Positions 19,991 to 63,870 of a stretch of 64,000 bases of DNA are shown here, piece after piece. The notes beneath the pieces were generated by a model that ran no database searches, was not told the DNA's origin, and saw only the letters and a program-made list of their open reading frames with translations. The position numbers and the translations under genes were made by a program. The stretch lies in the sequence record MT446416.1. The stretch is one strand, 5' to 3'. How positions within the stretch are numbered: the first letter of the stretch is position 1; each line of letters starts with the position of its first letter. Origin of the DNA: Escherichia virus TH47.

Positions 19991-22900
19991 ATGTCACAAC
20001 AAAAAAGACAATCCAATTTATACGCGGGGGAAGATTGGACCCAGGTATATGAAAGCTTTTACAAAATCAATCTCACGGCATTTGATTACGATACCATTCG
20101 TCAAAGTATGATAGACTATCTCCGAACTACATATCCAGATTCGTTTAACGACTGGATTGAGAACGACCAGTTTATTTTTATTCTAGATACAATATCTATG
20201 CTGGGGCAGAACTTAGCGTTTCGTATGGATCTTAATACACGCGAAAACTTTTTAGATACTGCAACTCGTCGTGCATCCGTACTGAAACTCGCAAAAATGA
20301 TTTCTTACTTTCCACGCCGTTCATATCCAGGTCGTGCAGTTGCTAAATTAACAGAAATAAAAACCAACCAAGACGTTCGTAATAGTTTTAACGAATCACT
20401 TAAGGATAAAATCATTCGTTGGAATGACCCAATGGACACAAACTGGTATGAGAACTTCATTCTAGTTATGAACAGTTCATTTGTCAGTACTAACCAATTT
20501 GGTAATCCGGTTAAACGTATCGATATCAATGGTGTTTCTCGTCATCTATATCGCATGAATACAATTCCAATGTCAGCCCCAAGTCTCCCATTCACTGCTA
20601 CAGTTAATGGTGAATCGATGACATTTGAAGTTGTCAACCCTGATATTACGGCAGTTGGTGTTGAAGAGCGTCACCCCGAACCACAAGAGCAAAAATATAT
20701 AGTTTATCAGAATGATGGTAATGGATTTAGTTCACCAAATACTGGTTTCTTTGTTTATTTTGTTCAAGGGACATTGACATACCAAGATTTCCAATATAAT
20801 ATTCGAGAAGAAAACCGAATTCAAGATATCAATGTTGATAATATCAACGAAACTGATGTTTGGGTTCAGGAAATCAACGAAGATGGTATTGTTCGTACTA
20901 AATGGACCAAAGTTCCATCTATGGAAAGTATCGCATACAATACTGTTAACCGTCAACTAAAAACAATCTTTGCTGTCACAACTCGTGATAAAGACCAGAT
21001 TACTATTAAGTATCCTGATTCTCGTAGTGGTGTTGTTCCTCGTGGGACGTATCGTGTATGGTATCGTGTTAGTAATGGTGAAACATACAACATTAAAACC
21101 TCTGAAATCCAGAACAAAAGTGTAAAATACACCTATAGAACCAAAACACAATCAAGCTACGAATCCAGTACTTTGGATATTCGTTTCACATTGCAATATG
21201 AGTCAGATCGTGCACAAAGTGCAGAAACAATTGAACAAATTAAGGCTCGTGCTCCACAAATGTATTATACTCAAAACCGTTTTGTTAACGGAGAAGACTA
21301 TAACATTGCTCCGTTGAGTTTGGGTAACACAGTTCTTAAATCTAAAGCAATTAACCGTTTATATAGTGGTCAGTCACGATTTATTGATATTAATGACCCA
21401 ACTGGTAAGTATCAAAACACTGATGTGTTTAGTGATGATGGTTCAATGTATCAAGAAAAAACACAATTTAATAAATCATTACAATTACCAACTACCAAAA
21501 CAAATGCTAGTATTGCAATTGATAATATTCAGCCATTGATTGGTGAGAATGCTGTAATACAACGTTATCAAGCATATCCACCGAATACAATTGGTATTGA
21601 AATTCAACAAAAATGGACACCTGAATACAATTCTAATTACGCAACTAATACGTATGGTCGTATTATGGGGGCAACAGGTAACGTATTCGTAAATTATCAA
21701 GTTGGTACGTTGATTAAGTTTTCAAATGCTGGAACTACTGTGTGGGCTAGTATTGTTAGTGTTCTTGATAATGGATATTACGTTCTAAGTACTTCAGTTT
21801 CATCAAATATGCAAGCACAAGAGTACATTTTACAATACAGAACACGTTTTAATAGTGTCGAAGTACAAGCAATCTCTGCAATGCTTGATAAAAAGACAGA
21901 TTTTGTTATTATTCATGATAAAGAAACAACTTCTTGGCTTCCATTAGAAATCAGTACTGATGAAGATACTATTTCTTATAATGGAAATGAAGTTCTTGTT
22001 ATGATTAACATCAAATATACTGCTGAAACATGGGAATTTTATGCGAATGGCGTTGAATATGTGTTCGTTGGTGGTGATAAAGTTCGTTTTTACTTCGTTT
22101 CTTCTAAAAAGATAACTGATATTAGTACTGGTAGTGTTCAGAGTGACAAAATTGAAATTTTATCATCAAATACCACAAGTAATAGTAATGCTGGGTTGAC
22201 AAGTAACATAGATTTCCAAATTTATGACACAATTCAACAAGAAAACGGGTATCTTGATGGTTCTCGTGTGGTTATCACCTCTGAAAACGTTGATAGTAAT
22301 GGAATCCCACTAGAACCTAATCAATTCAGAGAAATTGTACCAAATTGGACTGGTGAAGATTCAGTTAAATATGGTGGTATATTGGTTTTCCAAGAAAATG
22401 ATGATTTCACTATATCAGTACTGTCATTACCGAACGATACTTTCACTATTCTTGATTCTTCATGGGCTTATACAATGGAACAGGCACTTGCAGAAACTAA
22501 TGCGTATAAGAGAAGTGAATTTGTTCGCAACAATGCTATTCGCTCAACAACATTGAGTGGTATCTATAGTAAAGGTTCAGGCTTTATGGTTGGCTTTAAA
22601 TACGATGGTAAATATTACTTTATAGAACAAACTGTTGGTAATAATAATGATCGTTTAAACCAATTAATTGAGAACTTGACCTATTCTGATGACACAACTG
22701 CTGCAACTCCTGAACTTGCGTTTTATCGTGCTATTGTTAATATCGGAACTAATGCTGATGCTAACCAAAAGTTAGATTATTATGGTTATAAAGATGTAAC
22801 TTCACAATATACAGTAAAAACGAATGCAAGAACTGGTATTGATTTCCACTGGAAACATTATGCACCAGATGATAATCGCATTGACCCAAGTAGAACAAAC

Positions 22901-35861: not shown

Positions 35862-35889
35862 ATTATATCACATTCTTTGCGTTTGTCAA
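35862..35889 (-). promoter_or_regulatory. Near-consensus sigma70-type promoter (TTGACA-N16-TGaTATAAT) for ClpA-like gene
   Basis: Minus strand reads gTTGACAaacgcaaagaatgtgaTATAATg; about 30 nt upstream of ATG 35823; same motif recurs twice at 59336-59457. Confidence 0.5.
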
Positions 35890-53826: not shown

Positions 53827-54756
53827 TTATACAGCCATTGGTGCTTTGATTGTTGGCATTGGATCGTAATTAACTAATTTGAAAGAATCCATAGTGAAAT
53901 CTTCAATATCAGTAATAGTAGGATCTAACCATAATTCTGGTAATGTACGTGGTTCACGTTGGAGTTGCTCTTTTACTTGTTCAATATGGTTTTGATAGAT
54001 ATGGCAGTCGCCACCATTCCAAATAAATTCACCAACATCTAACCCAGTAATTTGTGCAATCATATGAGTTAGTAGTGAGTAACTACTAATGTTAAATGGT
54101 ACACCAAGGAATAAATCAGCACTGCGTTGATGAAGAATACAACTTAGTTTACCCTGTACAACACAAAACTGCACAAAGCTATGACAGGGTGGCAAAGTCA
54201 TAGCATCAAGCTCACCAACGTTCCATGCACTTAGAATGTGACGACGACCGTATGGATCAGTATTGATACCTTCAATAACTTGTTTTAGCTGGTCAGTTAC
54301 ACGACGCATAATAACACCATGTGAACCAGTATAATCAATAACTTTATACCCTTTATCTTTTAGTTCTTGAATTTCTTCAGTACTGGAACTGAATTTATAA
54401 TCTTCCCATTCACGCCATTGTTTACCATAAACTGGGCCAAGCTCACCATCAGAATACCCAAGGCTTACACCTTGATTAAGGTAGTTGTCTGTCCAAATTG
54501 TTTTCTTTTCTACATCACGTGTCCCGTGTAAAATTTCACACAGACGACGCTCATCGTGAGAACCTTCAATAAACCATAACAATTCTGAAGTCATTGCTTT
54601 CCAAGCCAAACGTTTAGTAGTTACTGCTGGGAAACCTTCTTTTAGGTCAAAACGCATTTGTTGTCCGATTAGCTTGATAGTGCCAACACCAGTACGATCA
54701 ACGCTTTCGACACCTTGATCCAGAATTCTTTGATATAGTTCTTGTAGTTGTTTCAT
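53827..54756 (-). CDS. thyA: Thymidylate synthase (ThyA/Td family)
   Basis: Near-collinear similarity to E. coli ThyA: DRTGVGT, GPVYGKQWR, RRHILSAWNVGELDAMTLPPCH (catalytic Cys), QFCVVQGKLSC, HQRSADLFLGVPFNISSYSLLTHMIA, KAPMAV C-terminus; one about 25-aa insertion. Confidence 0.9.
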   Translation of the reverse strand: MKQLQELYQRILDQGVESVDRTGVGTIKLIGQQMRFDLKEGFPAVTTKRLAWKAMTSELLWFIEGSHDERRLCEILHGTRDVEKKTIWTDNYLNQGVSLGYSDGELGPVYGKQWREWEDYKFSSSTEEIQELKDKGYKVIDYTGSHGVIMRRVTDQLKQVIEGINTDPYGRRHILSAWNVGELDAMTLPPCHSFVQFCVVQGKLSCILHQRSADLFLGVPFNISSYSLLTHMIAQITGLDVGEFIWNGGDCHIYQNHIEQVKEQLQREPRTLPELWLDPTITDIEDFTMDSFKLVNYDPMPTIKAPMAV

Positions 54757-56010: not shown

Positions 56011-56241
56011 TTATTCTCCTTTATTTTGTTCAGCAGCAGCTTGTGCAGCATCAGCTTCTTCTTGTGCTTTGATATCTTCGAGTGCAGAGTTAGCAAACTC
56101 AACAAACTTAGATACGACTGGAGCAACATCAACAAGTTCTTCGACTTTAAATGAATTACGAGCAACAGCAGCTTCCATGATTTTAGCAGCGTTGATTAGG
56201 TCGATTAGGGTTAGTTGAATTTTTTCTGGTTCTTGTTCCAT
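56011..56241 (-). CDS. Small acidic hypothetical protein
   Basis: ATG 56241 with GGAGAG RBS (ORF-track N-terminal extension rejected); 76 aa, acidic C-terminus (EDIKAQEEADAAQAAAEQ). Confidence 0.4.
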   Translation of the reverse strand: MEQEPEKIQLTLIDLINAAKIMEAAVARNSFKVEELVDVAPVVSKFVEFANSALEDIKAQEEADAAQAAAEQNKGE

Positions 56242-56273
56242 TTTAATACTCTCCATGTATGTTGTTACAAATA

Positions 56274-56302
56274 TAATTATATCACCTTTTTCCAAGCTGT
56301 CC
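56274..56302 (-). promoter_or_regulatory. Candidate promoter (GGGACA-N16-TGaTATAAT) for small acidic gene
   Basis: Minus strand reads GGGACAgcttggaaaaaggtgaTATAAT about 30 nt upstream of ATG 56241; a similar GGGACA-spacer-TGcTATAAT arrangement is upstream of the sigma-factor gene (about 12190-12220). Confidence 0.3.
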
Positions 56303-56304
56303 CG

Positions 56305-56338
56305 CTGAAAAAAGTAGAGAACGGAATTTTCCGTTCTC
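56305..56338 (-). terminator. Rho-independent terminator after vWA gene
   Basis: GAGAACGG-aatttt-CCGTTCTC hairpin followed on the minus strand by TACTTTTTT. Confidence 0.6.
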
Positions 56339-56350
56339 ATTATTTAGTAC

Positions 56351-57760
56351 TTAGCTACGTTGACGCTTTTTGTCAGCTTCATATTCGTAGTGTACAGTTT
56401 CGCCAAATGGTGCTTGTTTGTTAGGATTACTGTGGATAACAAACAGTGTCTTACAGTAATCAGGATCACCCCATGACTGCCACGGCTCACCATCGGTAAA
56501 CATAATAAGCTGTTTAGGCTTATAGTTGTCATGCTTCATATGAACCCATACTGCTTCAAAGTCAGTACCACCACCACCTTTCACTGGATATTCGAGAATC
56601 TTACTCTCTTCACCAGTTTTGTAATCTTTAACAGTATAAACTTCAGTATCGAACGTCATGATACGGATTTTAAATTGTTTAAACTGCTTAGTGATACCCA
56701 GTACTTCACTGATGAAATCACGGAGCATATCTTCAGAGATAGAACCGGATGCATCTAGTGCAATTGCAATATCAATATCATCATCTGGTTTCATGCCTGG
56801 GAAGATTGGATTCCCGTAGAATGAACCAGTACTACCAAAACCAGCACCCCATGAACGACGATTAGGACTTTGATAAGTTGCGTCAGACTTCAACCAGCTA
56901 CGCAGTGTGCGGTGAAGTTTGGAACGCCAGTCAATCTTAGGTTCTTTGAAGTTGTTAATCATACGTGCGATTTCAGCAGGAGTACCACCTGCACGAGCAG
57001 CATTCATCATTGCTGTTTTGAAATCATCCATATAATCACGTTTTTGTTTATCACTTGAACCACCTTCTTGACCTTCTTGTGGAACGTCATGCTGGTCGAT
57101 TGTTGTACCTTTGCCTTTACCATCTTTGATATCACCAAAAGTACCGCGTGATTTACCTTCACCCTCACCACTACCAGCCTGTGGATTTCCTTCACCTTCC
57201 CCGTCTTGATCCTGTTTATCTTCTTCTTCGAGAATGTTATAAATCTCTTCAGCAGTCATACCATCGTACTTTTTATCGTACAGCCATTGGCTTTGGATTT
57301 TACCAATTTTATCACGAACAAGAATCTGGTTAATTGCATAGTCAGCAGCACGGTTATAACGCTGCGGGTCACGCATACCACGACGCAAGAAGTGGTCATA
57401 TGCACAGTGAAGAATCTCATGACAGATAACTGCAATCAGGTTTTCATCAGTCAAACCTTCTGTCATTTCTTTAAGTTGTTCTTCAGTTACTTCAGGATGT
57501 TTCTCACGAATTGCTTCTTCGTATGCGGACTTTTTGGATTGGTCCTGAATACCCATGATGAATTCTACGTTGTAGAATAAATGCTTACCATCTACTGCCA
57601 AAGTACGACACCATGTATTGTTTGCAACTGGACGCAGACGAGAAGCCAGTACACCAAAGAATGGGAATGTTAGCATTAAAGATGTGCGAGCTAAGATCAG
57701 ACGATCTTGACATTCTTTCTGGAGAGCCGGAGTAACATCACTGAAACGTTTATCTGACAT
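56351..57760 (-). CDS. HExxH metallopeptidase-like / von Willebrand factor A (vWA) domain protein, partner of MoxR-like ATPase
   Basis: 469 aa; N-terminal AVICHEILHCAYDH (HExxH); C-terminal vWA with MIDAS DASGS and MFTDGEP; immediately downstream of AAA+ ATPase on same strand. Confidence 0.8.
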   Translation of the reverse strand: MSDKRFSDVTPALQKECQDRLILARTSLMLTFPFFGVLASRLRPVANNTWCRTLAVDGKHLFYNVEFIMGIQDQSKKSAYEEAIREKHPEVTEEQLKEMTEGLTDENLIAVICHEILHCAYDHFLRRGMRDPQRYNRAADYAINQILVRDKIGKIQSQWLYDKKYDGMTAEEIYNILEEEDKQDQDGEGEGNPQAGSGEGEGKSRGTFGDIKDGKGKGTTIDQHDVPQEGQEGGSSDKQKRDYMDDFKTAMMNAARAGGTPAEIARMINNFKEPKIDWRSKLHRTLRSWLKSDATYQSPNRRSWGAGFGSTGSFYGNPIFPGMKPDDDIDIAIALDASGSISEDMLRDFISEVLGITKQFKQFKIRIMTFDTEVYTVKDYKTGEESKILEYPVKGGGGTDFEAVWVHMKHDNYKPKQLIMFTDGEPWQSWGDPDYCKTLFVIHSNPNKQAPFGETVHYEYEADKKRQRS

Positions 57761-57835: not shown

Positions 57836-59164
57836 TTAACCAAGAGAGCGTGCTTTACGTACTAGGTCAGAGTACTTCATAACGAAGTCTTTAAACGCTG
57901 GTACATCTTTAATCGTAATCGCTACTTTATGAAGCGTGATGGTACGAATCGCCAGTACTGCCAGTTCTGCTTGAGTTGCAGAGAAGTTATGGTCTAGGAA
58001 GGTGATGAAGTTGTTGCACAGCTTACCCCAATCTTCCACTGGTAGACGTTGTTCTTGCTTCTCATTGTAGAGGTCGATAATTTTGTAAACCAGATTCAGA
58101 GTGATGAAGTAGTTCGCGGAAATATCAAGCGAAGCATCAATCTCTTTAATCTCACCCTGTAGGATGGACATGGTATCTGGTAGTTTAGCTACGTTATCAA
58201 CATACTCGATGTATTCAGTTGCTACGCCTTCACCAACACGACCTGCAATCATCGCACGGAACACTTCTTTATCAATGTTCTTAACTTTCTTCAGATCTTC
58301 GTAGCGTGCTACTGCTTCCCATGAACGTGGAGAAGTACCACCACAGTGAGAAGGATCTTGTGGGCTAAGGGTGTTGAAGTGTTTAGCACCAGTGTTGTTG
58401 ATGAACGCAACAGTTGCTGGGTTCAAACGCTTGCCAATCGCATAATCGTTAATCCAATCTTGATGATAAGGAATCATTTCGATGTGGGTCATACGGTCAC
58501 GCAGTGGTGTAGCTAGAGAGAACGTTACACCGCCATCAGTTTCACGGTTACCTGCTGCGAGAATCAGTGCAGTCTTAGGTAGCTTCATCTCACCAACACA
58601 ACGGTCGAGGATTAGCTGGTAAGACGCTGCCTGTACAATCGGCATTGCAGAGTTGATTTCGTCAAACAGGATAACACCTTTCCAATCATCGGGCAATTTC
58701 AGTACTTTTGGTGCTGCCCACACAACTGCTGTTTCAGCGATGTAATCTTGTGCACTAGCCAGTTCAGATTCAATCAGTTGCTTACCATCCATATCAAGGA
58801 ACACTTTCTCTGGAACTGGAATACCACGAAGGTCACTTGGTTCAATCTGAGACAAACGGAAATCGATAAAGTTAGTGTCTTGGTCGATTAGTTTGGCTTC
58901 AAACGCTGCCAGTTCACGGCGAAGTTGATCGGCATTTTCAGTATCAGCTTCGATTTGTTGTTTCATGAACTCAATTTTTGCCACGTTATCTTTACGCAGT
59001 GGGTAGTTCTCATCAGCGTATTGACGTGCGATAGCAGATTTACCGATACCAGGGCTACCCCAAATCATCAGGCTATCTTGAATCATGTCAGCCAGTGCCA
59101 TTGCTTCTTTAGCTTTCTTAGGAGTCAGTTTTACGTTCAGGATATCGTTGTTTTGAGTAGACAT
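57836..59164 (-). CDS. MoxR-like AAA+ ATPase
   Basis: 442 aa; Walker A GSPGIGKS, Walker B ILFDEIN, AAGNRE sensor, RDR motif; IDFRLSQIEPSDLRG resembles the MoxR post-Walker-A signature; about 45-aa coiled-coil insertion. Confidence 0.85.
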   Translation of the reverse strand: MSTQNNDILNVKLTPKKAKEAMALADMIQDSLMIWGSPGIGKSAIARQYADENYPLRKDNVAKIEFMKQQIEADTENADQLRRELAAFEAKLIDQDTNFIDFRLSQIEPSDLRGIPVPEKVFLDMDGKQLIESELASAQDYIAETAVVWAAPKVLKLPDDWKGVILFDEINSAMPIVQAASYQLILDRCVGEMKLPKTALILAAGNRETDGGVTFSLATPLRDRMTHIEMIPYHQDWINDYAIGKRLNPATVAFINNTGAKHFNTLSPQDPSHCGGTSPRSWEAVARYEDLKKVKNIDKEVFRAMIAGRVGEGVATEYIEYVDNVAKLPDTMSILQGEIKEIDASLDISANYFITLNLVYKIIDLYNEKQEQRLPVEDWGKLCNNFITFLDHNFSATQAELAVLAIRTITLHKVAITIKDVPAFKDFVMKYSDLVRKARSLG

Positions 59165-59335: not shown

Positions 59336-59363
59336 ATTATATCACATCGTTCAGGCTTGTCAA
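59336..59363 (-). promoter_or_regulatory. Near-consensus sigma70-type promoter, copy 1 (TTGACA-N16-TGaTATAAT with upstream A-tract)
   Basis: Minus strand reads aaaaaaaagttgTTGACAagcctgaacgatgtgaTATAATgacc; directs transcription toward MoxR gene (start 59164). Confidence 0.5.
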
Positions 59364-59429: not shown

Positions 59430-59457
59430 ATTATATCACATCATTCGGCGTTGTCAA
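59430..59457 (-). promoter_or_regulatory. Near-consensus sigma70-type promoter, copy 2 (tandem duplicate)
   Basis: Minus strand reads aaaaaaaaagatgTTGACAacgccgaatgatgtgaTATAATgacc; about 94 bp upstream of copy 1. Confidence 0.5.
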
Positions 59458-59484: not shown

Positions 59485-59862
59485 CTACATGTGCATCGAA
59501 ATTAACATTCTAAAATCATCACCACACAATGTTAACTCTGTAACTATCATTGCGTCAGAGAGGTATATGTACTGCCCTTCAACATAGTAGGGTGAAGTAC
59601 ATATCCTATCAAGCGATGTAAAGATTATAGAACTTTTGAACTCTCTTTGCAAGGGGATTTTTGTAAATTCGTAAAGAATGTTTTCTTTACAAATTGTATA
59701 TCCAAACTTGCTAAGTCTTAAACCACCGCCAGTTCTGAAATTTTCAAAAATTGACATCAGAAGCATACGGTCTGTTAATTCAGCGTCTGATCCATGTACT
59801 TCTCTAACTTTTAAAAGTACATCGTTTTGAAATTCAGTACTGTTGTGTGGTTCAGGGATCAT
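59485..59862 (-). CDS. Hypothetical protein
   Basis: 125-aa ORF ending just upstream of the tandem promoters; no motif recognised. Confidence 0.4.
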   Translation of the reverse strand: MIPEPHNSTEFQNDVLLKVREVHGSDAELTDRMLLMSIFENFRTGGGLRLSKFGYTICKENILYEFTKIPLQREFKSSIIFTSLDRICTSPYYVEGQYIYLSDAMIVTELTLCGDDFRMLISMHM

Positions 59863-59865
59863 ATA

Positions 59866-60258
59866 TTACATCCCCACAAAACCCTGTCTTGCTGCATATG
59901 AAGGAGCATCTTTAACTTTATAGTCTTGGACACCATCTTTACCAATTTTCGGACCCATATCTTTGGTTCCGAAGCAGCAATCAGTGGATTCATCAACTTC
60001 TTCAGTACTTTCATCATTATATCGAACATCCGATAAAATGTCACACGCTTTTTGAAGCTTTTCTACGATTTCTTTTTGATCTTCACCTGATTTAACCTTA
60101 TCCACAATGTGGATAAGGCATTCGGTGATATCTTTAAGTAAATCGGTGGCTACAGCATCAGAAGGAGTCTCAACTGCAAAACTTTCTTCTTCAGTAGATT
60201 CTTCACTAGAAGTGATTTCATCTAATGCTTCAACCAATTCACGATAATTATATCCCAT
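59866..60258 (-). CDS. Acidic hypothetical protein
   Basis: 130 aa, Glu/Asp-rich (SSEESTEEESF..., DESTEEVDESTD); GGGGA RBS. Confidence 0.4.
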   Translation of the reverse strand: MGYNYRELVEALDEITSSEESTEEESFAVETPSDAVATDLLKDITECLIHIVDKVKSGEDQKEIVEKLQKACDILSDVRYNDESTEEVDESTDCCFGTKDMGPKIGKDGVQDYKVKDAPSYAARQGFVGM

Positions 60259-60259
60259 C

Positions 60260-61249
60260 TTATTTGTCCCCTAGAAATTGTTGATATTTCTTCTGGAGAC
60301 TTTCGAAAATGTCTTCGACTTCTTCATCGCTTTCATCTTCTAGTTCTTCGTTACCTTCCACGGACTCATCACTCTCATTAACATTGAGTGGGTTGTCACC
60401 TAGAGCAGTACCTGGAAACTTAGGTTCAAATTTGTGAACACGGTTCTCGTTACCGTCATTGTCATAGTACTCTGGTTCAGGACGATTGTCAACATCTTCA
60501 TCAACGACACGTCTCCAGTAGAACTTGTTACCCTTGGTAATAACAACAAAGTGGTCACCTTCTACACCATTAGTTTTAGCTTGACCGTCACGAACGGCAT
60601 CAGCTTCAGTGTTGTAAGGTCCAAAATCAGTACTGTCACCTTGTTCTTCATCTTCAGAGATGGTTAGGTCTGGTAGGAAAGTGTTTTCTTCAACTTTAAC
60701 TTCAGTATCTGGGTTACCTTCTACTGAATATTCATCTTCTGGTTCGTCTTGAAGACCAGCTAGAGATAGCATACGACTGAAATCGAATTCTTCTTCGATG
60801 ATTTCTTCTTCTTCCTCTTCTTCAACTGATTCTAGTTGAGGTTGACCGGAAAGATCTAAAGAAAACTCTTCTTCATCTGCAACCCCAGGCTCTTCGAACT
60901 CTGCATCCATACTTACTTCTTCAGAATCACCACCAAAATCACCAGCTTCAGCAGATAGTGAGTCAGCAGCTACTTCCAATGGGTCTTCAACTGGTGCATC
61001 AATCGCACCATCCATTGCACCACCAACTTCTTCTTCAGCACCAGCACCAATGGAATCCATGTCGAGTGGAGCGATTGGTGGTAGAGAAGGGGTCATAGAC
61101 CCCATAGAAGGAACTGGAGCAGCAACAGGAGAAGCTTGACGCTCTGCTTGACCAGCTAATGCAAGCATACGAGATAGTGTTTCTAGATCTTCAGATTCTA
61201 GACCTGCGATATCGATTTTAACTTGTGCTTCATTAATTTTTTTAGCCAT
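60260..61249 (-). CDS. Highly acidic hypothetical protein with duplicated SRML(A/S)LAG motif
   Basis: 329 aa, long poly-Glu/Asp tracts (EEEEEEEIIEEEFDF), repeated LSRMLALAGQAE / FSRMLSLAGLQDE motif. Confidence 0.45.
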   Translation of the reverse strand: MAKKINEAQVKIDIAGLESEDLETLSRMLALAGQAERQASPVAAPVPSMGSMTPSLPPIAPLDMDSIGAGAEEEVGGAMDGAIDAPVEDPLEVAADSLSAEAGDFGGDSEEVSMDAEFEEPGVADEEEFSLDLSGQPQLESVEEEEEEEIIEEEFDFSRMLSLAGLQDEPEDEYSVEGNPDTEVKVEENTFLPDLTISEDEEQGDSTDFGPYNTEADAVRDGQAKTNGVEGDHFVVITKGNKFYWRRVVDEDVDNRPEPEYYDNDGNENRVHKFEPKFPGTALGDNPLNVNESDESVEGNEELEDESDEEVEDIFESLQKKYQQFLGDK

Positions 61250-61271: not shown

Positions 61272-62774
61272 TCAATCATTCTTATTTAATGATTTTAAAA
61301 TTTGCACTGTTTCATCCTTTTTACCAGATAGTAAAATGTCAGCAGCAATTAGAGAAACCTCATCACCACGCGTTAATAGTACTGTAATTTTCTTAGCGTA
61401 AGGTGATTCTTTAATTCGTGAAGCTAATGATTGAACTTCATCCCCAGCAGCAGGAACTTCAGGTTCTGGCTCTGCAACAGGTTCTGGTTCTTTAGTAGGC
61501 TCAGCTTTTGGCTCAACTACATCAGTACTTGATACTTCAGCATCTACTTTCTCTTCAGGTTCTTCTTCTTTCTTATCAGCACGTTCTGCATCATAACGAG
61601 CAAGAATGTTATCAGCAGTTGATTTTGGAATCAATTTACCATCAGCACTAATAAAGCGGTTACCACCGATATAAGAATACTCTGTGCCTTTCTTAGATTT
61701 TACTTTAGTTCCGATTTTCATTGCACCAGAACTGTTATGGCGAATTATATCACGTTGTGCAGCACGTTCAACACTTTTTGCAGCACTAACATTTAGTTGT
61801 TTTTTAGTTTCTACATCAAACCATGCATCTTTTTGTTTAATGTATGTTTTACCTTTATTTGAAGTAATGCGGTAACCATTTGGAACCACAACAGATTCAG
61901 TTTCTTCAATCTCTTCATCTGCTTCATTAATGGATTCTTTTGTTGCGAATACTGGCTGTTTTACTGGTTGTTTAGGTTTTTCACCTGAACCAAAACGTTG
62001 TTCACCTGATTCATGATCACCAGTTAGTGAAGGGAAATCACCAGGGTTAGCCTTAACAAATTTCTGATATGCATTAAAGATTGCATGTGCATTTTGTTCT
62101 GGAATTACAACATTACCATCATTATCACAAAATTCTTTACCATTCCATTCGGAACGAGTATTACCTTGTACTAAAGTAGATTTAATTGGAATTAGTTTGT
62201 TTTTTGGTGCTAATTGGCGAGCAATACGCATACCTTCATCGGAAAGTTTACGAGTCATTGCTGGGTCAACTGGACGTCCAGATTTTGCATCAACAAAACG
62301 GTGATTTTTAGGGATGAATTTAAATCCACTAACTTCCATACCTGCTGGAATAGAAATATCATCAGCATATGGTGGAAGGATATAGAATTTTAGTGAGTTC
62401 CATTCTTTTTGTAGAGTTTCTTTTGAAACATTATATACACGGTGGTCATCTGCCATTAGTTCAGTGATAATTTCACTTTCAGTTAGTAGAATTCCATCTT
62501 TAGAATTGAAACGATTTTCACCAAGAAATGTACACTCTTTACCTTCAAGAATATATTTGTTACCAATTTTATATTCACTAGAAGATAGATTGTGCTCAAC
62601 AATCTGTTGTCGAGCACTTGCGTACATGGATGGGTATTTTTTAGGGTCTACCATTAACATATTATTGTCGTTAAACCAGAAACCTTCTAGAAATACATAT
62701 TTGCCACCAGTGTGAGAAGTATATACATATCCATTAGGTACTGTGGTAGTTTCAGTACTGAAAAAATTATCCAT
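61272..62774 (-). CDS. Hypothetical protein with internal duplicated modules
   Basis: ORF-track start 62816 is GTG; ATG 62774 with AAGGAG RBS; two copies each of VPNGY.(Y/R)TS..G..Y and KIG.K...(E/K)G.E.(T/S)..G.NRF.S.DG.L modules; Pro/Glu-rich linker near C-terminus. Confidence 0.45.
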   Translation of the reverse strand: MDNFFSTETTTVPNGYVYTSHTGGKYVFLEGFWFNDNNMLMVDPKKYPSMYASARQQIVEHNLSSSEYKIGNKYILEGKECTFLGENRFNSKDGILLTESEIITELMADDHRVYNVSKETLQKEWNSLKFYILPPYADDISIPAGMEVSGFKFIPKNHRFVDAKSGRPVDPAMTRKLSDEGMRIARQLAPKNKLIPIKSTLVQGNTRSEWNGKEFCDNDGNVVIPEQNAHAIFNAYQKFVKANPGDFPSLTGDHESGEQRFGSGEKPKQPVKQPVFATKESINEADEEIEETESVVVPNGYRITSNKGKTYIKQKDAWFDVETKKQLNVSAAKSVERAAQRDIIRHNSSGAMKIGTKVKSKKGTEYSYIGGNRFISADGKLIPKSTADNILARYDAERADKKEEEPEEKVDAEVSSTDVVEPKAEPTKEPEPVAEPEPEVPAAGDEVQSLASRIKESPYAKKITVLLTRGDEVSLIAADILLSGKKDETVQILKSLNKND

Positions 62775-62787
62775 GTGTTGATTCTCC

Positions 62788-63333
62788 TTAAGAAAGCATA
62801 CGCAAAAGTTGTTCACGCTGTTCTGGACTTAATTTTTGTAGAACATCAGGGATACTAGAACCTTGTGCTTTTGGCTGTTCCTGTGGTGCTGGTTGTGGAG
62901 CATTGTCAGGTTGAGCTTGTGGTGCAGGACGTTGTTGTTCTTCACCTTTATCATCTTCACGATAATCATTCATCAAGTCACGGGATGCTGCCAATAGAGC
63001 AGAACCAACATCTTTAGGAGTAAAAGTACGACGACTGTTATTACCCAAGTGTTTTATATCAAGGTTATTTCCTTTGAAGAATTGTGCAACATCAGCATAT
63101 GGTACTGATGGCTGTGCTTTACCGTATTTGCGGCCAACATAGCGTTTAAATTCAGCCCAAAGACGGTTTGCTTCTGCACCAACTTCTTGTGCACCTTGTT
63201 CTACTTGACCACTACCGAAAAAGCCTTTTACTTTTCCTTTTGCACTATCTACTGCACTTTGTGAACGACTATATGGACGAGCTTCATTTAGCTCTTCATC
63301 ATTATAGTCTAACATTTCATTAAGTATACTCAT
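62788..63333 (-). CDS. Hypothetical protein
   Basis: 181-aa ORF; Gln/Pro-rich low-complexity tail. Confidence 0.4.
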   Translation of the reverse strand: MSILNEMLDYNDEELNEARPYSRSQSAVDSAKGKVKGFFGSGQVEQGAQEVGAEANRLWAEFKRYVGRKYGKAQPSVPYADVAQFFKGNNLDIKHLGNNSRRTFTPKDVGSALLAASRDLMNDYREDDKGEEQQRPAPQAQPDNAPQPAPQEQPKAQGSSIPDVLQKLSPEQREQLLRMLS

Positions 63334-63336
63334 GTC

Positions 63337-63870
63337 TCAATCCTTTTTACCAAAACCAGCACTCATATATTGAGAGTATTTATTGTCACTTTTAACTGCT
63401 TCAATCGCATCTTTAACTGCGGTTACAGCACGTTCTTCACCAGCTAAATCATGGCTGTCTTCTGGTTTGCCAAAATCAACACCAATTACTGGTTCGTAAT
63501 CGTCAAAGTCAATATCATCTTCGAGTTCGGTCATTTCTTGTTGACGTGGTTCATCTTTACTACGTACACGGATTAGAGCTTCAGTCATACTTAGTAGGTT
63601 ACCAATTTCATACATTAGTACGTTTGATTGAACACCACGGTGGCATTTGAAATCAAACATCCAAATTTCACCACAATCTAATTCATAAAAATCTAGTGGT
63701 TTTTCCATGAAAATAGTTTTCTTGAGTGCCCCAATATCAAATGCATCATAACGATCCATTAGGCGTTGTGATACTTTACTAAGTTGTTCGTTAGTAGGTT
63801 CAACTGCAAACTTGACTCGGTATTCAAAAACTGGTTTTTTATCTGTTAGGATTTGTTGTAATCTATTCAT
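63337..63870 (-). CDS. Hypothetical protein
   Basis: 177-aa ORF with GGAG RBS. Confidence 0.4.
   Translation of the reverse strand: MNRLQQILTDKKPVFEYRVKFAVEPTNEQLSKVSQRLMDRYDAFDIGALKKTIFMEKPLDFYELDCGEIWMFDFKCHRGVQSNVLMYEIGNLLSMTEALIRVRSKDEPRQQEMTELEDDIDFDDYEPVIGVDFGKPEDSHDLAGEERAVTAVKDAIEAVKSDNKYSQYMSAGFGKKD

Follow-up and report, generated by a model that had tools for sequence, protein, structure and literature searches.

The two strongly acidic proteins encoded side by side on the minus strand of Escherichia virus TH47, B329 (329 aa; 60260..61249) and A130 (130 aa; 59866..60258), are particle-associated and form part of the conserved core of RaK2/121Q-type jumbo myoviruses, and their families are already catalogued as virion proteins. 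The lead given by the original prediction, that they could be early DNA mimics or anti-restriction factors, is therefore dropped. The chance that they are late internal head or core proteins trimmed by a protease of the gp21 type of Escherichia phage T4 is judged to be about even; we infer that their location is inside the head.

Gene neighbourhood, promoters and acidity

The window (the whole 64-kb stretch of DNA analysed, sequence record MT446416.1) is that of an Asteriusvirus-like jumbo coliphage, with 98-99% identity to Escherichia phages BF17, WPEC3/5 and fEgEco12 and approximately 81% identity to phages 121Q, PBECO4 and phAPEC6. The copies of the two genes in the window are 99.7% identical to those of BF17 and WPEC3, and B329 is present in 72 phage records. 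B329 and A130 are the fourth and fifth genes of a tightly packed minus-strand block of six that runs from 63870 to 59485, with intergenic gaps all of 35 nt or less. Upstream of B329 in this operon are F177 (63337-63870), E181 (62788-63333; mislabelled in databases as 'Hsp70') and D514 (61272-62816; its true start is probably Met15 at 62774), all on the minus strand and all with orthologues found in virions by mass spectrometry. The last gene of the operon, G125 (59485..59862, minus strand), belongs to the family of 121Q gp562, for which no orthologue was reported in the published virion mass spectrometry of relatives.

In all relatives this block is located directly behind the genes of the tail sheath, three tail-tube proteins and a gp4-like head-completion protein. 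The order of sheath, three tubes, gp4-like, small genes, B329, A130, G125, MoxR, DUF2201/vWA and, further on, ThyA is kept in 121Q, RaK2 and CBB, and the same order is also found among metagenomic relatives at just 29-31% identity. The gp4-like gene lies 2-5 genes upstream of B329 and A130 in almost all genomes and contigs examined; in one short contig the neighbour is a tail completion gene resembling that of T4 gp15, not a gp4-like gene, and in one distant contig a protein of the module is encoded between the gp4-like gene and the large terminase. It speaks against a head location that the tail-tube genes adjoin the region of B329 and A130 and that the portal-protease-scaffold-capsid module is located approximately 60 kb away.

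Two tandem perfect sigma-70 promoters (TTGACA, 16 nt, TGTGATATAAT; exact match at 59430-59457 and 59336-59363, minus strand) were identified within the gap of approximately 320 nt downstream of the operon's end, ahead of the MoxR/vWA genes. Shuffled sequence would be expected to give 0.19 exact matches of this kind; the window has four. The genes behind these promoters, which encode a MoxR ATPase, a vWA/DUF2201 metallopeptidase and a 76-aa acidic ORF and continue to thymidylate synthase, appear from the promoter arrangement to be a separate, early-type unit. The T4-type late promoter (TATAAATA) has two matches in the 64 kb, against 6.8 expected, and none near the cluster. The assignment of B329 and A130 to an early-type region in the original prediction did not hold: the operon to which both belong has no large gaps and follows the tail-tube and gp4-like genes, and perfect sigma-70 promoters are found only past its end. 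Judged by this arrangement, the two genes are probably expressed late, from the structural operon.

The existence of two strongly acidic genes of 130 and 329 aa on the minus strand was borne out, with coordinates exactly as predicted, and their charge and pI were computed. B329 contains 28.3% Asp+Glu, with a net charge of -73 and a calculated pI of 3.52; A130 contains 24.6% Asp+Glu, with a net charge of -18 and a calculated pI of 3.96. They are the two most acidic of the window's 42 non-overlapping ORFs of 80 aa or more, with a net charge per residue of -0.222 for B329 (approximately 4 sd out) and -0.138 for A130 (approximately 2 sd), the ORF mean being -0.034 and the sd 0.046. Acidity is conserved in the B329 family (net charge -45 to -95) but not in the A130 family, in which a 97-aa relative has a net charge of +1. 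A third acidic ORF that had been grouped with these two (56011-56241) does exist (76 aa, net charge -9), but it is part of a different transcription unit and its charge per residue is only approximately 1.3 sd from the mean (using the 109-aa form of the ORF).

Conservation, predicted structure and detection in virions

Orthologues of B329 and A130 were identified, respectively, as gp560 and gp561 of 121Q, gp050 and gp051 of RaK2, CBB_213 and CBB_214 of CBB, and gp267c and gp266c of phAPEC6, where gp266c is the counterpart of A130 paired with that of B329. They share 35-76% identity with the TH47 proteins (40-76% for full-length comparisons) and have the same length, gene order and motifs, with no essential difference. 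B329 matches PHROG 15988 across the full-length profile (E=8.8e-124, residues 1-329) and A130 matches PHROG 14971 (E=1.5e-44, residues 3-130), both annotated as 'virion structural protein'.

Evidence of association with the particle comes from published mass spectrometry of these orthologues in relatives, not of TH47 virions. RaK2 virions yielded one peptide of gp050 (5.3% coverage) and two of gp051 (18.7%), CBB virions five of CBB_213 (18.9%) and one of CBB_214 (15.4%), and phAPEC6 virions one of gp267c (4.9%); in the published analyses no A130 orthologue was found in phAPEC6 virions, and neither orthologue in those of GAP32. The coverages for B329 orthologues in RaK2 and phAPEC6 each correspond to one 16-residue peptide, and the sole fully tryptic peptide of that length spans residues 12-27. 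Trypsin leaves few usable peptides of B329 (one has a length of 122 aa), and low peptide counts are to be expected because tryptic sites are this scarce. As the virions of phAPEC6 also gave thymidylate synthase and the MoxR ATPase, detection alone is no proof of a structural role. The original prediction had held that detection as abundant virion proteins with scaffold-like behaviour would speak against DNA mimicry, and of this the presence in purified virions of relatives was found; its own alternative of internal head or scaffold proteins is the one favoured, with orthologues present in the particles of RaK2, CBB and phAPEC6.

The poly-Glu tract and the duplicated SRML(A/S)LAG motif predicted for B329 were both found. 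Residues 143-149 are a run of seven Glu, and the two motif copies, LSRMLALAG (residues 25-33; 61151..61177, minus strand) and FSRMLSLAG (residues 157-165; 60755..60781, minus strand), are identical at seven of nine positions. The first lies within a predicted helix (residues 19-38), with R27 to G33 invariant or nearly so; the second follows the poly-Glu run and overlaps a predicted helix (residues 157-163), with M160, L163, A164 and G165 nearly invariant. Both copies are nearly invariant among 68 homologues (40-96% identity), which is the evidence for the motif, although the acidic residues that separate them show little conservation. The possibility that RMLxLAG is a targeting signal common to several virion proteins was rejected, since a tblastn search for it hits a single place in each genome; within the window it is resembled only by the C-terminus of E181 (LLRMLS).

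The AlphaFold2 model of B329 has a mean pLDDT of 59, with 137 of the 329 residues below 50 and the acidic segments without structure. It contains a small alpha/beta domain at approximately residues 205-250 (60500..60637, minus strand; pLDDT 88-96), with the pattern GPF..EA..D....TNG..G..F.V....G.FYW(K/R)R, which occurs in two to four tandem copies in some homologues (P0050, P0060), and a predicted C-terminal helix (residues 311-326). On this model, B329 would be a polyanion that is disordered for the most part; the LAG motifs would form two of its few short helices, and a single small domain would be folded. A likeness of this domain to YegP/DUF1508 was considered and rejected, a 30-copy profile giving no match to PDB sequences or Pfam; the best match of the domain profile (E=2.7) is trivial, a GDNF string in the regulatory subunits of protein kinase A.

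For A130, AlphaFold2 predicts with low confidence a helix (residues 5-20), a helical hairpin (residues 34-56/61-83) and disordered acidic linkers. Its C-terminal tail at approximately residues 97-130 (59869..59970, minus strand), FGT..M.PK..S.G...Y..APSYAARQGFVGM, is the most widely conserved part of the family and is kept even in the non-acidic 97-aa relative. A Pfam scan (E up to 0.1) assigned no family to B329 and gave four matches for A130, all sub-threshold, one of which is PF12699 over the helical hairpin; neither protein matched Ocr or ArdA. Foldseek analysis against the PDB gave a best E of 2, with no DNA mimic among the matches, and against the viral models of BFVD nothing outside the family itself.

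Candidate prohead protease sites and comparison with head proteins of T4

Head proteins of T4 that are located inside the head carry (L/I)-x-E↓(A/S/G) within their first ten or so residues (the arrow marks the cut) and are cut there by the gp21 protease. A candidate site of this type in B329, I-N-E↓A (residues 5-8; 61226..61237, minus strand), is kept in 67 of 68 homologues; in distant relatives P2 varies (N, T, Y), while P3, P1 and P1' are constant. A second candidate, I-F-E↓S (residues 314-317; 60299..60310, minus strand), is likewise kept in 67 of 68 and lies in the C-terminal helix. The candidate site of A130, L-V-E↓A (residues 8-11; 60226..60237, minus strand), is kept in all 13 close homologues, reading L-M-E↓A in RaK2 and L-M-E↓S in CBB, and is absent in the two most distant relatives, one of them non-acidic. 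As in T4, a protease of the gp21 family is encoded by 121Q (gp601; Peptidase_S77, E=1e-20, T4 gp21-type serine protease), and cleavage of the 121Q major capsid protein fits the same rule, a cut at L-T-E↓S after residue 43 leaving 37.2 kDa against a published mature mass of 37 kDa.

When the 121Q late region (67 genes) is surveyed, an N-proximal [LI]xE[ASG] is encoded by four of five genes in the head module and four of six in the B329/A130 cluster (Fisher p=4e-4 for the cluster), compared with two of the remaining 56, both non-structural, and no tail or baseplate gene. The cleavage motif is short, with approximately one chance match per 300 acidic residues. In addition, the stretch K-(L/I)-N-E-A-Q is conserved at interior positions of longer metagenomic proteins, so that its conservation may be structural and not for cleavage. 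The raw peptide table of CBB (fully tryptic search) contains no peptide across either candidate site in CBB_213; the two peptides next after its N-proximal site were each seen six times and the spanning peptide never. No neo-N-terminus was observed, because the published searches admitted fully tryptic peptides only. In indirect agreement with processing, the N-terminal and C-domain peptides of CBB_213 come apart among gel slices: the protein was represented by N-terminal peptides only in slices 02 and 05, by the C-domain only in slices 12 and 13 and by both in slices 09 and 11; slice 01 spans proteins from 22 to 89 kDa, and as the slices are not cleanly size-resolved their numbers were rejected as a size scale. 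On the strength of the conserved sites, both B329 and A130 may be cleaved by the gp21-type prohead protease.

The core and internal head proteins of T4 (gp67, gp68, gp22 and IPI-III) are small to medium late proteins, several of them strongly acidic. T4 packages such acidic core proteins, gp67 having 44% Asp+Glu and a pI of about 4, and its internal proteins possess a cleavable N-terminal capsid targeting sequence of approximately ten residues. Unlike the T4 core proteins, B329 and A130 are encoded outside the portal-protease-capsid module, the acidic protein of which is 121Q gp600, and B329 is much larger, with a folded domain and repeated helical motifs. Homology was sought by hhalign and rejected for the B329 family with gp67 (probability 0.7%) and with 121Q gp600 (0.2%), and for the A130 family with gp68 (0.1%). 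As internal head proteins, B329 and A130 would be loaded while the prohead assembles, forming acidic parts of its core or interior, where Peptidase_S77 would trim them at (L/I)-x-E↓(A/S), B329 after residue 7 and near residue 316 and A130 after residue 10. The two short amphipathic RMLxLAG helices, the folded domain and the C-terminal helix of B329 would be the likely contact points with other head components, and its long Asp/Glu linkers would repel DNA, a property suited to a core that fills space until incoming DNA displaces it or restricts it to the portal axis.

A position at the neck or tail is unlikely, though a real contender: B329 and A130 could be minor neck or tail proteins, or chaperones that help to join head and tail or to build the tail, with only traces left in particles. 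Their partners would be the tail-tube proteins or the gp4-like head-completion protein encoded next to them. The proximity of the gp4-like gene almost everywhere examined, the gp15-like neighbour in one contig and the low virion peptide counts would agree with this, as would the MoxR-vWA system encoded downstream. The MoxR-vWA-metallopeptidase pair has been proposed as a virion-assembly chaperone and processing system (Iyer et al. 2021), and B329 and A130 could be its clients. However, the MoxR/vWA genes are under their own early-type promoters, the low counts are accounted for by the scarcity of tryptic sites, and no tail-like fold or family was found in Pfam or by Foldseek against the PDB and BFVD. 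The N-proximal protease-type site, which the two proteins share with head proteins and which no tail or baseplate gene in the 121Q late region encodes, also argues against the tail.

Anti-restriction readings and the inner body

It is improbable that the two proteins travel inside the head and leave it together with the DNA to act as polyanionic decoys against restriction or other DNA-binding defences. Such a role would be a form of the original prediction in which the factors are made beforehand and delivered by the virion, similar in logic to T4 IPI* and P1 Dar, which are virion-delivered anti-restriction proteins. The presence of orthologues in virions and the extreme negative charge kept across the B329 family would suit such a role, and T4 sends internal proteins into the host by means of their N-terminal targeting sequence. 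However, the Pfam and Foldseek searches (PDB and BFVD) gave no similarity to a known DNA mimic or anti-defence protein, the charge of B329 resides in predicted disordered linkers and not on a DNA-shaped surface, and the acidity of A130 is not a family trait. The genes also form a strictly syntenic core family, unlike anti-defence genes, which are typically patchy in distribution and turn over fast.

Ocr (T7 gp0.3) and ArdA are products of early or leading-region genes and form rigid dimers whose carboxylates trace the DNA backbone. B329 and A130 are like them in their very low pI and high Asp+Glu but differ in the apparently late position of their genes, in the occurrence of orthologues in virions and in having their charge in predicted disordered segments; a compact fold with a DNA-like carboxylate array was not found in the AlphaFold2 model of B329. 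That they act in the cytoplasm as early mimics or anti-restriction factors of this type, as originally predicted, is very improbable, since only composition and net charge fit (25-28% Asp+Glu, pI below 4), against a gap-free operon shared with virion protein genes and upstream of the early sigma-70 promoters, orthologues in virions, no Ocr/ArdA family in Pfam, no solved structure matched by Foldseek and a B329 predicted to be mostly disordered.

If B329 and A130 are internal head proteins, the DNA-repelling property of such a core would make them candidates for the radiation-sensitive inner body of 121Q and phAPEC6. Inner-body proteins of phage phiKZ are reportedly processed by the head protease; the protease families of phiKZ and the 121Q-type phages differ. 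Bubblegram imaging of both 121Q and phAPEC6 has shown an inner body like that of phiKZ, 91 x 18 nm in size and lying along the portal axis, and the authors of the phAPEC6 study found no homologues of the phiKZ inner-body proteins in its genome. Membership of A130 in phiKZ_IP (PF12699) was rejected, its score being 18.6 bits against a cut-off of 27 bits, with five of 13 family members matching, all close relatives. It is rather doubtful, but conceivable, that B329, perhaps with A130 and the small neighbouring virion proteins, builds the inner body of the 121Q/phAPEC6 type. In that case DNA would be kept out along the portal axis by a polyanionic, largely disordered protein core, which the RMLxLAG helices would anchor and the gp21-type protease would trim, and which would have no sequence kinship to the inner-body proteins of phiKZ. 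The inner body of 121Q-type phages has been imaged twice without a protein being assigned to it, and B329 and A130 are testable candidates by virtue of their conserved, polyacidic and protease-site-bearing character, a narrow but concrete value. If B329 were moreover to leave the particle before the DNA does, it could have a second role in the host as a decoy resembling DNA.

Sequence features of the acidic gene pair

The region of the window is 98–99% identical to Escherichia phages BF17, WPEC3/5, Ecwhy_1 and fEgEco12 and approximately 81% identical to 121Q, PBECO4 and phAPEC6. These relatives are jumbo myoviruses (350–385 kb) of the RaK2-like group, with 121Q and its close relatives being classified as Asteriusvirus. 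The acidic proteins A130 (130 aa; 59866-60258, minus strand) and B329 (329 aa; 60260-61249, minus strand) are encoded by adjoining ORFs, with coordinates and lengths exactly as originally predicted. Their computed net charges are -18 and -73, with Asp+Glu contents of 24.6% and 28.3% and pI values of approximately 4.0 and 3.5, respectively. They form the most acidic pair among the 42 non-overlapping ORFs of the window, with charge densities of B329 and A130 lying about 4 and 2 standard deviations off the mean, respectively. Each matches a PHROG family named ‘virion structural protein’, and B329-like genes were identified in 72 phage records, all of the RaK2-like group and with one copy each. 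The two are already catalogued virion proteins of these phages, to which no function has been assigned.

The poly-Glu sequence and duplicated motif predicted for B329 were both confirmed, with one stretch of seven consecutive Glu and copies of (L/F)SRML(A/S)LAG at residues 25-33 and 157-165. Both copies are almost invariant among 68 homologues (40–96% identity), while the acidic sequence separating them is not conserved. Strong acidity is found throughout the B329 family (net -45 to -95). It is not universal in the A130 family (one 97-aa relative has a net charge of +1), the conserved portion of which is the C-terminal tail MAPK..S.G...Y..APSYAARQGFVG. The N-terminal module of B329 can be written as K-L/I-N-E-A-Q...LSxxLxLAGxAE, followed by an acidic linker and the second LAG motif. 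This module also occurs in the interior of metagenomic proteins of 380–620 aa (P0144-P0168; L014, L015) from unrelated metagenomes, and it behaves as portable since it lies there behind unrelated N-terminal domains.

An AlphaFold2 model of B329, built with the 68 homologues, averaged a pLDDT of 59, and 137 residues scored under 50. Helices predicted with confidence lie at residues 19-38 (first motif), 157-163 (short, second motif) and 311-326 (C-terminal), along with a small alpha/beta domain at approximately residues 205-250 (pLDDT ~90) that some homologues repeat in tandem (two to four copies). A130 is predicted to form an N-terminal helix and a helical hairpin, with disordered acidic linkers between. 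Foldseek searches found no match in the PDB (best E=2) and nothing among viral models beyond the acidic protein family itself. A Pfam search with B329 returned no family, nor did a profile of its small domain match the PDB or Pfam. A130 matched the phiKZ internal-head-protein family weakly, scoring 18.6 bits where the threshold is 27 and with hits in five close relatives only, which is a hint at most.

Gene order and promoters

In the direction of transcription, the order in 121Q, WPEC3, RaK2 and CBB is tail sheath, three tail-tube genes, a gp4-like head-completion gene and genes 556-562 (121Q numbering; 560 and 561 are the orthologues of B329 and A130). After gene 562 there is a gap, followed by a MoxR ATPase, a DUF2201 metallopeptidase-vWA protein, small genes, a DprA-like gene and thymidylate synthase. 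An identical order occurs in metagenomic relatives at only 29–31% identity, and on a more distant contig the gene of a protein with the B329 N-terminal module is flanked by the gp4-like gene on one side and that of the large terminase on the other. Several GenBank records name the DUF2201 protein an ‘HNH endonuclease’, for which Pfam matches give no support.

Of the genes upstream of B329 in the same operon, E181 (62788-63333, minus strand) is labelled ‘Hsp70 heat shock protein’ in PHROGs/RefSeq, despite which a Pfam search gave no match whatever; its conserved C-terminus, LSPEQREQLLRMLS, is similar to the RMLxLAG motif of B329. D514 (61272-62816, minus strand) is listed with a GTG start that is probably wrong, as judged from relatives, which begin at Met15 (62774). 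By eye, this protein contains two units of ~95 aa starting VPNGY(V/R)(Y/I)TS, joined by a linker that carries an I-N-E↓A site, and its C-terminal region is acidic and rich in Pro and Glu. A shorter form occurs in RaK2 and in some metagenomic relatives.

From 63870 down to 59485, intergenic gaps are all ≤35 nt. The gap of ~320 nt below this operon holds two tandem perfect extended -10 sigma-70 promoters (TTGACA, 16 nt, TGTGATATAAT; 59430-59457 and 59336-59363, minus strand), ahead of the gene of the MoxR-type AAA ATPase, which with that of the DUF2201 protein occupies 56351-57760 and 57836-59164 (both minus strand). A third promoter of the TGTGATATAAT type precedes a ClpA-like gene (35862-35889, minus strand) and a fourth exact consensus lies at 20774-20800 (plus strand). 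Four exact matches to TTGACA-N15-18-TATAAT therefore occur in the window against 0.19 expected, three with the extended -10. Such promoters appear to signal early-type units lying within the structural region. One such unit would begin directly downstream of the acidic genes, because the tandem promoters sit in the gap below their operon. Placement of the pair in an early-type region thus seems to have been wrong: judged by promoter position, A130 and B329 belong to a structural-gene operon, with the MoxR-to-ThyA block and a small acidic ORF inside the putative early-type unit.

This third acidic protein (56011-56241, minus strand) does exist as predicted (76 aa, net -9) but is a far weaker outlier, and it has not been reported in virions. 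A 109-aa form of the ORF (56011-56340) contains, in its N-terminal extension, a perfect 9-bp hairpin (56317-56338) scoring as a terminator on both strands, which supports the 76-aa gene starting at 56241 and matching 121Q gp565.

Detection of orthologues in virions

Four virion proteomes are available for the RaK2-like group (RaK2, CBB, phAPEC6 and GAP32). The B329 orthologue was detected in RaK2 (gp050; 1 peptide, 5.3% coverage), CBB (CBB_213; 5 peptides, 18.9%) and phAPEC6 (gp267c; 1 peptide, 4.9%; PMC7247149), and that of A130 in RaK2 (gp051; 2 peptides, 18.7%) and CBB (CBB_214; 1 peptide, 15.4%) but not in phAPEC6 (gp266c); neither was detected in GAP32. Low peptide counts are expected for B329 as it contains just 20 Lys+Arg and its tryptic digest includes one peptide of 122 residues. 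Coverage in RaK2 and phAPEC6 equals exactly one 16-residue peptide, and the sole fully tryptic peptide of that length in both orthologues is residues 12-27. In the raw CBB table, the commonest CBB_213 peptides are residues 12-27 and 28-38 (6 observations each), and three further peptides map to the folded domain towards the C-terminus (residues 207-239).

Abundant, scaffold-like virion proteins had been named in the original prediction as an outcome at odds with DNA mimicry; of this, presence in the virions of RaK2, CBB and phAPEC6 was found. Detection alone does not prove a structural role, since the MoxR ATPase (6 peptides) and thymidylate synthase (3 peptides; PMC7247149 Table 1) were likewise found in phAPEC6 particles. 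The same table lists a 217-aa protein family with 1 peptide (window locus for the ThyA/217-aa observation, 53827-54756, minus strand). In 121Q, an N-proximal (L/I)xE[AG] motif is found in ThyA as well as in the DprA-like protein, which may reflect chance or contamination.

Putative processing and role of the pair

A130 and B329 may be acidic proteins of the head core or interior that a gp21-type protease trims, a proposal we consider evenly balanced. They would be packaged in the head and cut by the prohead protease at (L/I)-x-E sites. Phages of the group have a prohead protease of the T4 gp21 family (121Q gp601; Peptidase_S77, E=1e-20), and the 121Q major capsid protein matures from 42.2 to ~37 kDa; cleavage after residue 43, at L-T-E↓S, is computed to leave 37.2 kDa and follows the T4 rule of (L/I)-x-E and then a small residue. 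In T4 head proteins the site lies close to the N-terminus, within ~10 residues (gp67 LIE↓A, gp22 IAE↓A, gp24 LRE↓S), and T4 internal proteins enter the prohead via a targeting sequence at the N-terminus (~10 residues), which the protease cuts off. Candidate sites in B329 are I-N-E↓A (residues 5-8) and I-F-E↓S (314-317), each in 67 of 68 homologues, the former varying only in its middle residue (N, T, Y) among distant relatives with flanking residues kept. L-V-E↓A of A130 (residues 8-11) is found in all 13 homologues (LME↓A in RaK2, LME↓S in CBB). In the 121Q late region (67 genes), such a site near the N-terminus is carried by 4/5 genes of the head module, 4/6 of the acidic-gene cluster and 2/56 elsewhere (both non-structural; no tail or baseplate genes); enrichment in the cluster gave a Fisher p of 4e-4 for gene groups defined after looking.

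Tryptic peptides spanning either of the two B329 sites were never seen in the CBB data, the search of which covered fully tryptic peptides only. N-terminal CBB_213 peptides alone were found in gel slices 02 and 05, C-domain peptides alone in 12 and 13 and both in 09 and 11, which is consistent with the protein existing as fragments, size resolution of the slices being poor. Against cleavage, the motif is short, and K-(L/I)-N-E-A-Q is also conserved in longer proteins that carry the module internally. Against a location in the head, the genes adjoin those of the tail tube, ~60 kb from the capsid module, and the proteins may instead sit in the neck or tail.

A real rival is that they act at head-tail joining, or as clients of the adjacent MoxR-vWA-peptidase pair, which has been proposed to be a virion-assembly chaperone and processing system (Iyer et al. 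2021). That they are packaged in the head and ejected with the DNA as polyanionic decoys in the host is improbable given their strict core-gene synteny, unlike typical anti-defence genes. Early DNA mimicry of the Ocr/ArdA type, as originally predicted, is very improbable, having only charge in its favour and, against it, the operon-inferred timing, the orthologues in virions, the predicted disorder and no sequence or fold similarity found.

One worthwhile lead concerns the radiation-sensitive inner body of 121Q and phAPEC6, which measures ~91 x 18 nm, lies along the portal axis and has no phiKZ homologues among its proteins; A130 and B329 are candidates for it in 121Q-type phages. A further point against the head-internal reading is that the pair showed no homology to T4 gp67, T4 gp68 or 121Q gp600. 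The last of these (282 aa; L-Q-E↓A, residues 7-10; pI ~4) makes a third strongly acidic protein in virions of the group, and its gene lies between those of the portal and prohead protease (L006 4880-5728, outside the window), the position of gp67/gp68 in T4.
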